Below are positions 20,629 to 27,577 of a stretch of DNA of 64,000 bases, piece after piece (position 1 is the first letter of the stretch; every line of letters begins with the position of its first letter). The notes under the pieces are model-generated. The model was not told where the DNA came from. It worked only from the letters and a program-made list of their open reading frames with translations, and searched no databases. The DNA is from a bacterium. GTDB taxonomy: Bacteria > Patescibacteriota > Microgenomatia > UBA8517. The stretch is taken from contig CP129472.1 of the NCBI GenBank assembly GCA_030583725.1, positions 529,902-593,901 on the forward strand, given 5' to 3'. Made by a program: the position numbers and the translations under genes.

Positions 20629-21225
20629 CTATCTCGATAAATCTGGAGTTTTGTCGTATCCAACTGCGTAATTACTCATAAAATCTTCTAACAAAACAGG
20701 TTTAAAATACCAAACCTCACTTACTCTAAAAGAGTTTGTGTGGGAAATAAAAGCAATACCCTTACTTGGATAAGCGTTTAGTGTGTAACCAACAGAATAG
20801 TCTGGGCCATAGAGAATATTTTCCGGGTTACCATAAAGGGAGACAAAGTCTTCCTTGTATTTATTGTCTTTGTTTGTGTAAACAACTTTTAGATAACTTA
20901 ATCTGTTGTCTATGATGATAACTTCAGAGTTAAAATTAGGGTTTGATGATAAGTATTCGTAAGTTTCCATATTCCCGTCCAGTTTTGCTTTTATTGCTGT
21001 CCCCATTCTAGATAAAACTTCTTCTTTTGAGCTTGTTCCAGGTGTTAATTCGTTGTATGTAGCAACATCATTATTTATTGGAAGATGTGTTGGTGTCGAG
21101 CCCTTATCTTTTCTGGTTAAAATAACTATAAAGAATAAAATAATTACGAAAAAAATTATAAAAAACTTTTTGTTATTTATAATATATAAAATTATGTTTT
21201 TCATCTTATCTAAATAATACATCAT
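20629..21225 (-). CDS. hypothetical membrane-anchored protein, last gene of the T4SS-like operon
   Basis: 198 aa. N-terminal TM, then an extracytoplasmic domain. Overlaps the upstream gene by 20 nt. Confidence 0.3.
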   Translation of the reverse strand: MMYYLDKMKNIILYIINNKKFFIIFFVIILFFIVILTRKDKGSTPTHLPINNDVATYNELTPGTSSKEEVLSRMGTAIKAKLDGNMETYEYLSSNPNFNSEVIIIDNRLSYLKVVYTNKDNKYKEDFVSLYGNPENILYGPDYSVGYTLNAYPSKGIAFISHTNSFRVSEVWYFKPVLLEDFMSNYAVGYDKTPDLSR

Positions 21226-23953
21226 TCATAAATTTATAGTGTGCTGGATTTCTTTGTCTAAAATTTCCACATCTATCGTCGGCATAGAAAGCAGCAGCTT
21301 CAGCAAATCTTTCTGAATATGGCCATGCACCGGTCTTTGTTATGTAGTCGTAAAAACAATATGGGTGAGGCTCGTTTGTTATTCCAGGATAGCTTATATA
21401 TTGGTTATACCAACTGTCATCATTTGTAGCTAGAACATGAGCTAATTCATGGAAAAGAATATAATTAGTATCTCTTTGGTTAGCTACACCCCTACTGTAT
21501 AATCTTACGTATCCATCTTCCCACCAACCCCAATAGTTAGGGTCATTTCCTGCATATCTAATATCAACACTTTTTCCACCAAGACTTGCACAGATTTTTG
21601 ATGCATATCCATTATATTCACCTTGCAAGGTAGATATTGCACCTAAAATGTATGAATATTGATCTGCGCTAAAGCCATTTTCGACGATATTGAAACATTG
21701 GTTGGGTGGGTTACCGATTCTAATTGACGCTGCACCTGAAGTTGTTTGTTCACCGCCCTCACCTGCTGTTGCTGTAACTTCAAAAGTGTTTACTACAAGA
21801 GCGTCTGTCGTAAAAACGTTGTAGGTGTTTTCATATGTTATTACATATGGTGACGCAACAGAAATTGCATCAGGGACAACAAAAGAAGATGTTGTACAAG
21901 GAGGAGTTGATGCCTCTTGAACAATTTTACAAGTGTCCTTAAATGAAATATTTGTTAAGGTGTTTCTCTTTGCGGTTATTGTGACGGTATACTTAATTGT
22001 TAAGGGTAAATCACTGTTTTCAAATGGCCCACTTGGCTCTACTGTTTTAATAACGCTAATATATGGGTTTGAAGATTGACTTAGTGACGGCGGGGCTGGT
22101 GGTATAACATATGCACTGTTGTTTATGACAAGCATTATAAAAGCAACAAGTGGAGGGAGAACTAAAAGAGTAACTATTACAGGGGTTGCAATGGCAATTC
22201 CTACCGATCTACCAATAAAACCAAGTATTCCAAAAGCACCGGTTGCCAGTGTCCCAAATCCCACTGTTGCTCCAGCAACTACAAGGCCAATACCCAGACC
22301 TGGTCCTGCACCAAAAAGCAATGCACCCAATGTTCCAGCACCAATAGCAATTGCTGGGCCCACTTTATCTTTGTTTTCCGTCCACCAAACTTTGAGTTTT
22401 GACATTGCGGCTGAAAACACTTGTCCTCCAACCATTCCAGCTACAGCTCCTATTATTGTTCCCACAACAGGGACAACACTTCCTGCAGCGGCCCCCGCAG
22501 CCCCTCCTGCAAAAGCTTCAGCCGCCATGACACCACCAGTAAGAGCTACTGATGTATATGTTGATGCGGCTTGGGCTGCGATACTTGCTCCAATCGTCCC
22601 CCCTGTCACTGTTGATATGGGTGTGACCAGTTGTGTCTTACTAAATCTACTTGCCAAATACAAAACTGGGTTTGCGGTATTTGGGGCGATTCTTACCATA
22701 AAACTTGAAAATTCACCTAGTTGGCTTGTTGCTTGCCAAGCAACAGGACTTGTCAAGCCATACCTTGCAAAAATACTTTGAACAATTGGGTCCGAATATG
22801 CCTTTTTAATTAAGCTCCCAGTTGGTAGTTTTGATATCTTTTCTGCTATGTAGCCCCTTGCATTACTCGTAAATCTACCATAAAAATACTCCCTTGATTT
22901 GTCAGAGCCAAAACCCTTAATGTTTTCTAGAAACTGGTTTTGATGGTTCCGTTGCTGTATTGAAATTTGATTTAATGAACCCAGATCAATCTTGTGTGTT
23001 GTTTGACCATCGATTTTATTATCGCTTAGTATAGTTTCAAAAGACCTTGGTCCGTAAATTGCAGAAGTAATATTATTGCCAAAAATACTTTGGGAAATTT
23101 TCTCACTAAAAACTAAGGGCTCCGTGTTTGTTTGTTGTAATAAAATGGCATTTTCTTTCGTTAGTACTGCTAGTCGATCATCATTAAGGTTGTTTGATAA
23201 AACATTTTGTCCATCTTCGTTAACTGATTTTAAAATTGAATTTTGGATCAGATTCTCGTATGTCTCTTCAGGTTTAGCTATTTTTTCTACAATTTCCACG
23301 GCCGTAGTGGTTATTAAAAGCTCCTTTTGCTCAAGTGATAGGTTGTCAAGTTCATGACCCAATTCTCCTTCGATTTTGGTTGCAAGGTCGGAAATTAAAA
23401 TTTGTTTAGGTGAAAGTTCACCCGTGTTTTTAGAAGTATCGTTTTGTGCGTACTCTCTCAAAACTTGTAAATCTTTTTGTTCAATTTCATCAAGGGGTAG
23501 TGGTTCCGGTAAAACGACTTTGGCGTAAATAACCTTATTTCTTAATTTTTCTTGAAGTTTTTGGGCTGTCGCAATTCTTTCTTGGTTTTGTTTTATAAAA
23601 TCATCGATTGTTTGCTTTTCTCTTGCTCTGATGTCTATGTTTTGCTGAGTTCTTTTGTCTGCAGCTTCCCCGAAATATTTCAATTGTTCAGGGGTTAAGG
23701 TAGAATTCACAGGCATGTCATTTGGCCTGTTTATTTCCGAAAACTTAGGAACTTTTATTAATAGCTCATAGGCCTGTTGCAGTTTTAGCTCAACCTCTTT
23801 TGGTGTTAGTCTTGAAGAAATTCCAACACTTTCTAAACGTTTGTTGAAACTAGCAATTTGTTTATTATAAATCGCCTTATCCCTTAATTTAAAATTTTCA
23901 TCAAACAACCTCCCAAAATCGGTTTGAAGTGATGTGACAGTGTTTAAATCCAT
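21206..23953 (-). CDS. large T4SS-associated membrane protein: coiled-coil N-domain, Gly/Ala-rich polytopic segment, C-terminal HExxH metallopeptidase-like domain
   Basis: 915 aa. Residues about 440-610 form Gly/Ala-rich TM helices (VirB6/TrbL-like feel). 'NYILFHELAHVLATND' HExxH sits in a Cys/Trp/Tyr-rich extracellular C-domain. Confidence 0.4.
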   Translation of the reverse strand: MDLNTVTSLQTDFGRLFDENFKLRDKAIYNKQIASFNKRLESVGISSRLTPKEVELKLQQAYELLIKVPKFSEINRPNDMPVNSTLTPEQLKYFGEAADKRTQQNIDIRAREKQTIDDFIKQNQERIATAQKLQEKLRNKVIYAKVVLPEPLPLDEIEQKDLQVLREYAQNDTSKNTGELSPKQILISDLATKIEGELGHELDNLSLEQKELLITTTAVEIVEKIAKPEETYENLIQNSILKSVNEDGQNVLSNNLNDDRLAVLTKENAILLQQTNTEPLVFSEKISQSIFGNNITSAIYGPRSFETILSDNKIDGQTTHKIDLGSLNQISIQQRNHQNQFLENIKGFGSDKSREYFYGRFTSNARGYIAEKISKLPTGSLIKKAYSDPIVQSIFARYGLTSPVAWQATSQLGEFSSFMVRIAPNTANPVLYLASRFSKTQLVTPISTVTGGTIGASIAAQAASTYTSVALTGGVMAAEAFAGGAAGAAAGSVVPVVGTIIGAVAGMVGGQVFSAAMSKLKVWWTENKDKVGPAIAIGAGTLGALLFGAGPGLGIGLVVAGATVGFGTLATGAFGILGFIGRSVGIAIATPVIVTLLVLPPLVAFIMLVINNSAYVIPPAPPSLSQSSNPYISVIKTVEPSGPFENSDLPLTIKYTVTITAKRNTLTNISFKDTCKIVQEASTPPCTTSSFVVPDAISVASPYVITYENTYNVFTTDALVVNTFEVTATAGEGGEQTTSGAASIRIGNPPNQCFNIVENGFSADQYSYILGAISTLQGEYNGYASKICASLGGKSVDIRYAGNDPNYWGWWEDGYVRLYSRGVANQRDTNYILFHELAHVLATNDDSWYNQYISYPGITNEPHPYCFYDYITKTGAWPYSERFAEAAAFYADDRCGNFRQRNPAHYKFMNDVLFR

Positions 23954-23955
23954 AA

Positions 23956-26519: not shown

Positions 26520-26539
26520 AATTTATTATAAATTCTTAC

Positions 26540-27577
26540 CTATATTTTTGTTCCTCTAATTGCTATTGCAGGTATCATCTCTCCCTTGGCCTCAAATGAA
26601 ACTGGTTCAAAGTTAAAACCTGTCTTTTCAACTGTAACTTCATATCTACCATTTGCAAGTGATGTAACAATTATAAAATGCCCAGCCTTGTTGCTTTTTA
26701 AGGCCCTAACAGGTCTACCTGTTGAATCTTTGATTTCTAGGATTGCACCCTCAACAATCTTTCTGTCTTGGTCCATAACTTGACCCACAATTGTGTTGAT
26801 GGCAATTGGTGGTGAGGGTGGAGCAGCATCAACTGAAAACTCCGCAATGTCAGAAGTAATTGTTTTCTCCTCAATTTTTTGACCTTCAATACTAGTAATT
26901 TGAGCCTGTGCACCAGAAGCTTGACGAGATGGAGTTTCTTCAACTACTAACTTTGGTGCAGATCTGGTAACAACAGTAGGAATTTGTTGTGGCACAGATA
27001 AAGAAGGATTAGGACTTTGGTTTACAGGTGCTGGTATATTACCTAGATCAACCTTAGGTGTGGGAGCTGTTGTGGTAATAGGTGTATTACTTGGTACAAC
27101 AGATGGTTGGGCTGGGCTTGTTGGTGGAGGTTGTCCACTAATGGAGAACAATCCACTAATTTTTTGTAAAAATGATTTTTCTAATTCTTCAAACTTTGTT
27201 GTGTTTTGTTCTGTAGTTGTTGGTGAAGCACTTGTAATTGACTGAACAGGTGGCGCAACAGCGGTTTCAGTGTAAAAACTTAAAGGCTTATCAGTTTTTT
27301 TCCAAGTAAACAATGTTGGAGAATATATACTTCTAAAAAAAGCAATAATCCATCTCTCAAGTGGCCTTTCTTCAAAAGGTAGAAAAGCCATTGCAGCACC
27401 TAAACCCGCAGACAGGAAAATAATTGGCCACTTTATTATTGGATGTAGGGGAGTGGAGTAAAAAATCAAAGAAATAATAACACCACCAGCTACCTGAAAA
27501 AATTGTTTTAAAGTCATATCTCCAACCAATTTAAATTGATATGAGCTTATTTGCTGTGGTATTGGATGTTGTTCCAT
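26540..27577 (-). CDS. T4SS-associated membrane protein: two N-terminal TM helices (VirB3-like position), Pro/Thr-rich linker, C-terminal carboxypeptidase-regulatory-like beta domain
   Basis: 345 aa. First gene of the operon, directly upstream of the VirB4-N ORF. The C-terminus 'GQVMDQDRKIVEGAILEIKDSTGRPVRALKSNKAGHFII...GRYEVTVEKTGF' matches the CarboxypepD_reg pattern. Confidence 0.35.
   Translation of the reverse strand: MEQHPIPQQISSYQFKLVGDMTLKQFFQVAGGVIISLIFYSTPLHPIIKWPIIFLSAGLGAAMAFLPFEERPLERWIIAFFRSIYSPTLFTWKKTDKPLSFYTETAVAPPVQSITSASPTTTEQNTTKFEELEKSFLQKISGLFSISGQPPPTSPAQPSVVPSNTPITTTAPTPKVDLGNIPAPVNQSPNPSLSVPQQIPTVVTRSAPKLVVEETPSRQASGAQAQITSIEGQKIEEKTITSDIAEFSVDAAPPSPPIAINTIVGQVMDQDRKIVEGAILEIKDSTGRPVRALKSNKAGHFIIVTSLANGRYEVTVEKTGFNFEPVSFEAKGEMIPAIAIRGTKI

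Follow-up and report, generated by a model that had tools for sequence, protein, structure and literature searches.

Why would a genome of about 0.84 Mb keep genes of a type IV secretion system (T4SS) directly beside dnaA and dnaN, and do such genes represent a fixed machine of the cell or an integrated conjugative element? This question is raised by a 64-kb stretch of contig CP129472.1 (hereafter, the window), which belongs to a Microgenomatia (Woesebacteria-like) genome, and in which five open reading frames (ORFs) of the minus strand lie next to the two replication genes. Our analysis points with high probability to the core operon of a Patescibacteria-type chromosomal T4SS, derived from Gram-positive conjugation machinery of the mating-pair formation class MPF-FATA and fixed at the replication origin, in which a membrane protein carries a swappable enzyme tip followed by the gene of a cognate partner. 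The operon had been delimited in an initial annotation, together with its position beside dnaA–dnaN and gene spacings of −20 to +20 nucleotides (nt), and all its coordinates were confirmed, with spacings of +20, −4, +2, and −20 nt. The genes concerned, with the lengths of their products in amino acids (aa), are the following:

26540–27577, minus strand: PrgI/VirB3-like membrane protein, 345 aa (Pfam and hydropathy)
25818–26519, minus strand: TrsD/TraC-like protein, 233 aa (NCBIfam, Pfam, and hhalign)
23956–25821, minus strand: VirB4 ATPase, 621 aa, as identified with NCBIfam, the Protein Data Bank (PDB), and BLASTP
21206–23953, minus strand: mosaic membrane protein with an HExxH tip, 915 aa (family alignment and AlphaFold2, AF2)
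20629–21225, minus strand: N-terminally anchored protein, 198 aa (hydropathy, AF2, and Foldseek)
19525–20628: dnaN (Pfam-confirmed)
17873–19318: dnaA (Pfam-confirmed), with rnpA and yidC at its other flank

The 621-aa protein matched the NCBIfam model conju_CD1110 (1.3e-110, 370.9 bits against a cutoff of 325) over positions 180–734 of 752, its best PDB match was the C-domain of the Thermoanaerobacter VirB4 (4ag5, 2.9e-46), and its residues 64–587 aligned to residues 241–782 of PrgJ from pCF10 (BLASTP, 1e-39), with a Walker A motif at aa 276. By these matches, the protein is a VirB4 of the Gram-positive CD1110/MPF-FATA type, as had been proposed for it, and not as an ATPase of the FtsK/HerA or VirD4 kinds. 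The Pfam family P-loop_TraG (PF19044) also matched at aa 267–573; as this is the same P-loop region that NCBIfam and the PDB call VirB4-type, the match does not place the protein with FtsK/HerA or TraG/VirD4. We take the TraG of PF19044 to be the Bacteroides-type homologue of VirB4, not the VirD4-type TraG.

Because the matches of the 621-aa protein start at residue 241 of PrgJ and at position 180 of the CD1110 model, the first ~180–240 residues of a VirB4 are absent from it. The 233-aa protein, whose gene trsD overlaps virB4 by 4 nt, provides them, as it matched positions 103–278 of the 894-position NCBIfam profile VirB4_plasma, which describes the VirB4 of Mycoplasma integrative and conjugative elements (1.8e-6), and the 621-aa protein covers positions 287–893 of the same profile. 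In addition, the 233-aa protein carried the precomputed Pfam label PF26593 (TraC-like) and matched the NCBIfam TrsD model NF041427 at 2.1e-5 and 24.5 bits, far below the cutoff of 200. A search for homologues of the PrgJ N-terminus provided 11 close fragments, enough for a small profile, and the comparison of a TrsD profile (143 sequences) with this N-terminus gave an hhalign E-value of 2.8e-4, with aa 32–150 of TrsD colinear with aa 35–148 of PrgJ; the same TrsD profile found nothing in the PDB at E-values up to 1. TrsD and the 621-aa VirB4 thus together make up one canonical VirB4, and the previously suggested division into an N-domain ORF and an ATPase body is sustained by their complementary, colinear matches to one full-length VirB4 profile. 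The split is ancient, has become fixed, and is no peculiarity of this locus. At 50% identity, the TrsD family comprises 1815 representative clusters; nearly all of the 150 with the highest scores are stand-alone proteins, and at least one member is a fused form (P0052). TrsD was also considered as a paralogous duplicate of the N-domain of the 621-aa VirB4, to which its similarity is weak (BLASTP 0.002, hhalign 0.03), and this reading was dropped because the matches to PrgJ and VirB4_plasma are colinear and identify TrsD as the missing N-terminal piece.

The 345-aa protein encoded by the first gene had been described as a membrane protein at the VirB3 position with a carboxypeptidase-regulatory-like C-domain, and both parts were recovered by Pfam. 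Its residues 5–84 matched PrgI (1.5e-5, 25.9 bits against a cutoff of 27, over 80 of the 91 profile positions), and a C-terminal beta-sandwich of the CarboxypepD_reg family was found at aa 262–322 (1e-7). Two N-terminal hydrophobic helices (segments within aa 26–69) are followed by a linker rich in Pro, Ser, and Thr. We regard the protein as a PrgI/VirB3 homologue, as the match is marginal but position and topology are right. Homologues with 60–71% identity were the first operon gene in each of eight relatives. The fusion of the PrgI/VirB3-like part to a CarboxypepD_reg domain was kept in loci L001, L003, L013, and L023, and the 2025 survey of Patescibacteria T4SSs (PMC12102498) does not mention it in its main text.

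The comparison of the window with 18 related loci, taken from Microgenomatus/Woesebacteria metagenome-assembled genomes (MAGs) and metagenome contigs, showed how firmly this operon is fixed in the chromosome (L019 duplicates L011; eight loci came from genomes, and a metagenome scan contributed six). The locus was found at the same site in all 18, with no variable presence. The order prgI-trsD-virB4-915-X-dnaN-dnaA-rnpA-yidC, in which 915 and X stand for the genes of the 915-aa protein and of the protein encoded after it, was present in 13 of the 13 relatives with long enough contigs, at DnaA identities of 55–95%, and in six shorter contigs the genes agreed as far as each contig reaches. In the eight loci from genomes, VirB4 (79–95% identical to that of the window) was always better conserved than DnaA (65–81%), and the GC content of the locus equals that of its flanks. 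No relaxase, VirD4/TcpA-type ATPase, or integrase was detected in the Pfam scan of all window ORFs of at least 250 aa, and a survey of the large unannotated ORFs around the locus for Walker A motifs returned only VirB4 and an AAA_14 protein, so that the reported lack of a visible VirD4 or relaxase is borne out for the 64 kb. The conserved order and the lack of a coupling protein, relaxase, or integrase argue against an integrated conjugative element, and we conclude, in agreement with the initial annotation, that the machine is fixed in the chromosome. We further conclude that it is under strong purifying selection. That the locus could itself be an integrated conjugative or mobilisable element, or the remnant of one, is suggested by the origin of the VirB4, PrgI, TrsD, and pilin families in conjugation systems; such a reading is highly improbable against the constant site between core genes in the 13 relatives, the lack of mobile-element genes, a GC content like that of the flanks, and a VirB4 more conserved than DnaA.

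A different question is the direction in which the machine works, and an import of DNA or nucleotides, in the manner of ComB or Ced systems, may be considered instead of secretion. Such uptake has been proposed for Saccharibacteria (PMC11665869), the window contains no coupling protein or relaxase, a ComFC-like gene is located at 44310–44912, and VirB4 weakly matched CedB (1.7e-13) and CedD (3.4e-7), both far below cutoff. However, these scores correspond to ordinary similarity within the VirB4 superfamily, the best family being the conjugative CD1110, and no ComEC-type or Ced-specific partners were seen in the locus, which makes import an unlikely function. This alternative concerns only the direction of transport and is compatible with the anatomy described here.

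Insertions were observed in virB4 of some relatives. In L011 (4977–8564, with the same sequence in L019) and L023 (2306–5989), one ORF of ~1200 aa makes up virB4 and carries an in-frame insertion at Walker A, and the precomputed Pfam labels Intein_splicing and LAGLIDADG_3 of the L023 insertion indicate an intein in a T4SS ATPase. The virB4 of the window is free of inteins.

The gene after virB4 encodes the 915-aa protein, and it occupied this place in every locus whose contig reaches virB4. From the N-terminus on, the protein is made up of a helical domain, a multi-helix membrane region rich in Gly, and a beta-sandwich, and it ends in an HExxH domain; its AF2 model was confident at aa 1–345 and 630–870. 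Two of these parts were delimited on the sequence:

22094–22621, minus strand: membrane region of the 915-aa protein, aa ~445–620 (hydropathy and family alignment)
21209–21706, minus strand: HExxH metallopeptidase-like domain, aa ~750–915, with the motif HELAH at aa 835–839, nt 21437–21451 (alignment)

Its homologues share the helical N-terminal region, the Gly-rich membrane region and, often, the beta-sandwich. The membrane region, which ends in the near-invariant helix TPVIVTLLVxPPLVAFIMLVINNSAYVVPP, showed 59–96% identity among Woesebacteria-like loci, with flanks down to ~20%, and 24–41% identity to the distant L015. In contrast to this shared body, the C-termini vary among HExxH, Peptidase_M23 (1.8e-18 and 1.8e-14), and Amidase_2 domains. 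Module-wise identities revealed the protein to be a recombination mosaic in which the middle region sorts independently of the tip; for instance, the middle regions of L023 (HExxH) and L025 (M23) are 86% identical. The fusion of an HExxH domain to a polytopic protein, noted before as unusual, is real, as is the Gly-rich membrane region, but it is not atypical, being one allele of a polymorphic enzyme slot. Within the operon, the contrast in conservation is very steep, with a 915-aa protein only 27–45% identical beside a VirB4 of 79–95%.

Ten HExxH sequences, 26–81% identical to that of the window, shared as invariant positions the HExxH motif, a downstream ExxAE, and four Cys, and this invariance suggests an active extracellular zincin containing disulfide bonds. 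Its family assignment was less clear, with a weak match to the Pfam family Peptidase_M64 (5.6e-5), an M1 zincin as best Foldseek match (2.6e-3) and, as best PDB profile match, the Pro-Pro endopeptidase 6fpc, which was not significant (E 0.49) and had its motifs in register. Searches against PDB, Pfam, plasmids, and phages gave no match to characterised wall hydrolases, and tblastn with the domain returned one insignificant SprT match among plasmids and nothing among phages. We infer a topology with the N-terminus inside and the C-terminus outside from the hydropathy, the conserved Cys, an internal loop rich in Lys, and the lack of charge where the last helix exits; in this topology, the N-terminal helical domain is probably cytoplasmic.

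The gene encoded immediately after the 915-aa protein changes together with the tip. Its BLASTP cluster fitted the tip type in all 19 loci, with a worst same-type E-value of 2e-13 and a best cross-type E-value of 0.017, and the family of the 198-aa protein was present in 10 of the 10 HExxH loci and in none of the nine others. The combinations were as follows:

HExxH tip, 10 loci: downstream family of ~195 aa
Long M23 tip, 5 loci: downstream family of ~330 aa
Amidase-like tip, 2 loci: downstream family of ~380 aa
Short M23 tip, 1 locus: unique downstream protein of 399 aa
Divergent M23 tip, 1 locus: unique downstream protein of 155 aa

All these downstream partners are bitopic, with one N-terminal anchor each, and none belongs to a Pfam family. 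The partner type followed the tip even where the middle region of the large protein sorts independently, and several pairs of loci show this matching to be uncoupled from species relatedness. Loci L010 and L011 are mutual closest relatives (DnaA 87%, TrsD 95%), yet they carry an HExxH and an M23 cassette, respectively. L006 and L022 share 92% identity in DnaN versus only 27% in the enzyme and 31% in the partner, whereas the window and L004 show 49% in DnaN, 81% in the enzyme, and 57% in the partner. Within the HExxH class, partner identity followed that of the enzyme (Spearman rho 0.66) and less that of DnaN (0.38) or VirB4 (0.28), over 36 non-independent pairs. We read the tip and the downstream gene as encoding a putative cell-wall enzyme and its cognate partner, matched independently of species relatedness. 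This exchangeable cassette is the only part of the locus that goes beyond earlier explanations; neither the mosaic protein with interchangeable HExxH, M23, and amidase tips nor the co-varying downstream gene was described in the literature searched, which included PMC12102498 and PMC10633639.

The partner encoded in the window, the 198-aa protein, has a single N-terminal hydrophobic helix, possibly with its true start at Met8, and a predicted extracytoplasmic domain. This ectodomain was modelled as a tandem alpha-beta4 repeat (AF2; mean predicted local distance difference test, pLDDT, 72), for which the best Foldseek matches were the DUF4309 protein YjgB (4ygt), the BLIP-like 3d4e, and N-domains of SCP proteins. 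Position and size are like those of PrgL from pCF10, a 208-aa protein encoded after PrgK, and both this likeness and the bitopic form with an N-terminal anchor would fit a fast-evolving channel subunit of the VirB8/PrgL type, the other downstream genes being diverged or replaced versions with no link to the enzyme; VirB8 is, moreover, undetectable by sequence in most Patescibacteria (PMC12102498). However, no VirB8 or NTF2 structure appeared in the Foldseek top 50 of the 198-aa model, a negative of moderate confidence because the Foldseek E-values are weak, and hhalign found no homology between the family profile and PrgL. In addition, the downstream proteins form five unrelated families of 155–399 aa that match the tip type exactly, in a machine otherwise conserved at 80–95%. 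We therefore consider a channel subunit of this kind doubtful and retain the cognate partner as the preferred reading.

As in polymorphic toxins, a swappable C-terminal enzyme on a conserved carrier is followed here by a type-specific gene, which leads to an alternative in which the 915-aa protein and the downstream product form an effector-immunity-like module directed against the host. In that case, the tip would breach or remodel the host wall, the partner would shield the wall of the producer, and the alleles would track the chemistry of host walls. The polymorphic enzyme on its conserved membrane core, the strict co-variation of the downstream gene in 19 of the 19 loci, and the exchange of the cassette across lineages all fit this possibility, as does the BLIP/DUF4309-like fold of the partner, which is of a kind used by protein inhibitors. 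Wall-hydrolase effectors of the Xanthomonas and Stenotrophomonas T4SSs have cognate immunity proteins (PMC10933484, PMC6759196), and Patescibacteria are epibionts that require their T4SS to grow on the host (PMC10633639). By contrast, the 915-aa protein appears firmly embedded in the membrane through a near-invariant helix, with no release or cleavage signal seen, its gene sits exactly at the slot of the assembly hydrolase in Gram-positive T4SS operons, and nothing separates self from host substrate. We regard such a module as possible, although on balance unlikely. A related and tentative idea, to which we give a low probability, is that of a built-in, exchangeable "cutting head", in which the tip and its tethered inhibitor form a cassette that would open the host wall at the junction, each allele matched to host wall chemistry; effector-immunity logic would then be fused into the secretion machine itself and would operate without a coupling protein.

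The pilins and further candidate components are encoded at some distance from the operon, in the following features:

31812–33470, minus strand: polytopic membrane protein, 552 aa, candidate VirB6 analogue (hydropathy and conserved position)
33941–36301, minus strand: signal-peptide protein, 786 aa, adjoining the pilin array (lone N-terminal hydrophobic segment)
36315–39400, minus strand: eight VirB2-like T4SS pilin genes in tandem (Pfam PF18895, T4SS_pilin)
39388–41187, plus strand: SpoIID-domain membrane protein, 599 aa (Pfam SpoIID 1.8e-14, N-terminal hydrophobic helix)

All eight pilins matched PF18895, with E-values from 8e-10 to 4e-3 and four of them above the cutoff, and each has two hydrophobic helices. 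The VirB6-like gene and the pilin array had been reported downstream of the operon; both are indeed present, 4–12 kb away, but upstream of this minus-strand operon. The VirB6-like label itself holds for topology and position, as the 552-aa protein has a signal or anchor plus ~6–7 hydrophobic helices and, in the six of the eight genome loci with a long enough flank, was detected upstream of the operon. It does not hold for sequence, as there was no match to VirB6 or PrgH models, no Pfam or NCBIfam match of any kind, and no significant BLASTP similarity to PrgH. The 786-aa protein, also with no Pfam or NCBIfam family match, is assigned to the locus by position only and is possibly a pilus-associated surface protein. 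The gene of the 599-aa protein, which belongs to the wall-remodelling SpoIID family, diverges from the last pilin gene with a 13-nt overlap, and its product is possibly a second, pilus-linked wall enzyme.

Putting these components together, PrgI would anchor the TrsD-VirB4 ATPase complex at the membrane, and this complex, with the polytopic proteins, would power the building of a pilus or channel out of VirB2-like pilins. Such a structure would work at the contact with a host bacterium, and its cargo would be protein or nutrients, not conjugative DNA. The 915-aa protein, in the slot of PrgK, would have its ~five Gly-rich helices embedded in the membrane and display the beta-sandwich and the enzyme outside, where the tip most likely cuts wall or peptide and so opens the cell wall for the machine. 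The product of the fifth gene is most likely a membrane-tethered, type-specific binding partner, either an inhibitor or a regulator, that would hold the enzyme in check. By analogy with PrgK, an opening of the producer's own wall is slightly favoured over an attack on that of the host.

Several points weigh against this proposal. The PrgI match falls slightly below the Pfam cutoff, and a VirD4 or a relaxase may sit elsewhere in the ~0.84-Mb genome. No characterised family matches the HExxH domain significantly, and the substrate of the domain could be protein instead of peptidoglycan. The analogy with PrgK is one of position and architecture, with no homology to PrgK or PrgL; for the 915-aa family profile, hhalign against PrgK gave an E-value of 0.34 over 18 columns. 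The N-in/C-out topology is deduced, and the membrane region was modelled at a pLDDT below 50. The association between enzyme and partner could partly reflect plain physical linkage, since the two genes are adjacent and a crossover between them would find no homologous sequence. Finally, the proposed functions, including the cargo, are read from sequence and models.

The position of the operon relative to the replication origin was analysed through DnaA boxes because the GC skew of the window, dominated by gene strand, did not locate an origin. All three perfect TTATCCACA boxes of the window are at dnaA (17896, 19364, and 19420), and of the 23 sites that differ from the box at no more than one position, 7 lie inside 19240–19428. 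This clustering makes the dnaA–dnaN spacer the likely oriC, ~1.1 kb from the 3' end of the operon:

19319–19524: dnaA–dnaN spacer with clustered DnaA boxes, likely oriC (DnaA-box scan)

The operon is convergent with dnaN, and the stop codons of dnaN and of the 198-aa gene directly adjoin (20626–20631, spacing 0 nt), so there is no room for terminators. If oriC is the dnaA–dnaN spacer, the whole T4SS operon runs towards the origin, head-on to the rightward fork, and the orientation convergent with dnaN was kept in every related locus. Such a head-on arrangement is unusual for an operon so conserved and probably essential. A scan for promoters and terminators performed no better than on shuffled sequence, for which reason no operon boundaries were drawn from it, and Rfam and transfer RNA (tRNA) scans detected no RNA element inside the operon.

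The rest of the window contains housekeeping genes (leuS, tsaD, tsaE/Sua5, L25, dnaG, rpoD, and an RNase J-like gene) and one restriction-modification cluster. The stretch between the operon and the gene of the 552-aa protein (27710–28858 and 29347–31809, both on the plus strand) differs among relatives; its AAA_14/DUF4143 ATPase was found in the window and L004 only, and its 820-aa protein has no family match, with only its first ~108 residues matching, in one relative (L008). The ComFC-like protein (plus strand), with a double zinc ribbon and a phosphoribosyltransferase domain, is encoded ~5 kb beyond the pilin array, and comF has been reported near T4SS loci in the class ABY1 (PMC12102498). 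The restriction-modification cluster (45834–48590, minus strand, and 48624–50552) adjoins a cluster of four tRNA-Ser and one tRNA-Arg and consists of a D12-class N6-adenine methylase, a 299-aa ORF with no family match, and an N6_N4 methylase, with no integrase seen. In addition, a transfer-messenger RNA gene with the tag peptide AMPKNIAPSFAYNYQMLYA is located at 43468–43844 on the minus strand (Rfam, 137.8 bits), and a 190-aa protein encoded at 59407–59979 on the plus strand contains a SET domain (Pfam, 5e-21), a eukaryote-type lysine methyltransferase domain uncommon in bacteria. Among the relatives, MAGs L005, L006, and L009 show the full synteny of the Woesebacteria-type locus and are titled "uncultured Gammaproteobacteria bacterium", labels that look wrong.

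The role of T4SSs in the tiny genomes of Patescibacteria is an open question of the field, and the system is essential in the one species tested. With respect to the core machine, the locus of the window adds nothing new. The 19-locus comparison does provide a testable handle in the form of a rapidly exchanged, putatively extracellular enzyme with its type-specific partner, encoded next to an ATPase of extreme conservation. Host range could be predicted from the alleles if the wall of the host is the target; if the target is the cell's own wall, the enzyme would explain the passage of a pilus or channel through the envelope in lineages for which neither VirB1 nor VirB8 had been recognised.

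The nearest known systems are those of other Patescibacteria, or candidate phyla radiation (CPR) bacteria. That CPR genomes keep such T4SS-like systems agrees with published work (PMC12102498, PMC10633639). In Southlakia epibionticum, the origin-proximal T4SS encoded by SEML1_0006–0019 is essential, includes pilins but no recognisable coupling protein or relaxase, and has hydrolase genes directly downstream of virB4 (Wang et al. 2023, PMC10633639). A survey of 3,035 genomes described a monophyletic Patescibacteria VirB4 clade inside MPF-FATA, TrsD as the most abundant T4SS component beside virB4, PrgI/VirB3 together with arrays of VirB2-like pilins, the latter especially in Microgenomatia, and a location near dnaA, dnaN, rnpA, and rpmH in Microgenomatia and Paceibacteria (Quinonero-Coronel et al. 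2025, PMC12102498). According to the same survey, relaxases are near-absent, homologues of the type IV coupling protein (T4CP) are usually far from virB4, and few homologues of VirB1, VirB6, and VirB8 are detectable, these being mostly undetectable in Microgenomatia. The window shares with these systems its MPF-FATA VirB4, separate TrsD, PrgI/VirB3, divergent PF18895 pilin array, origin-side location, hydrolase gene downstream of virB4, and lack of a nearby relaxase or T4CP. The composition, which the initial annotation had called atypical, is therefore the published norm, and the locus is a typical example of the chromosomal, origin-linked T4SS of CPR/Patescibacteria; the mosaic 915-aa protein, its swappable tips, and the co-varying gene are the features seen here and not in those descriptions.

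The Prg/Pcf system of the Enterococcus faecalis plasmid pCF10 (prgH-prgI-prgJ-prgK-prgL) presents, in the same order, a VirB3-like protein, VirB4, a large anchored protein (PrgK, an 871-aa membrane-anchored wall hydrolase), and a small bitopic one (PrgL, VirB8-like). It differs in its unsplit VirB4, its T4CP PcfC, its relaxase and adhesins, and its lack of pilins; moreover, the 915-aa and 198-aa proteins have no homology to PrgK and PrgL, and the 198-aa model is not VirB8-like. The Trs systems of pGO1 and pSK41, an MPF-FATA subclass, resemble the locus by description in their stand-alone TrsD, a homologue of the VirB4 N-terminus encoded beside the VirB4 gene, but they are plasmid-borne and conjugative, and the TrsD profile match reached here only 24.5 of the required 200 bits. 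Finally, the effector/immunity pairs of the X-T4SS of Xanthomonas and Stenotrophomonas and the polymorphic toxins share with the cassette their variable enzymatic C-termini, including wall hydrolases, the type-specific partner gene after each enzyme, and the modular exchange between strains. However, X-T4SS effectors are soluble, VirD4-dependent, and injected, and they bear an XVIPCD signal, whereas here, with no T4CP nearby, the enzyme would be the tip of an integral membrane protein encoded inside the core operon.

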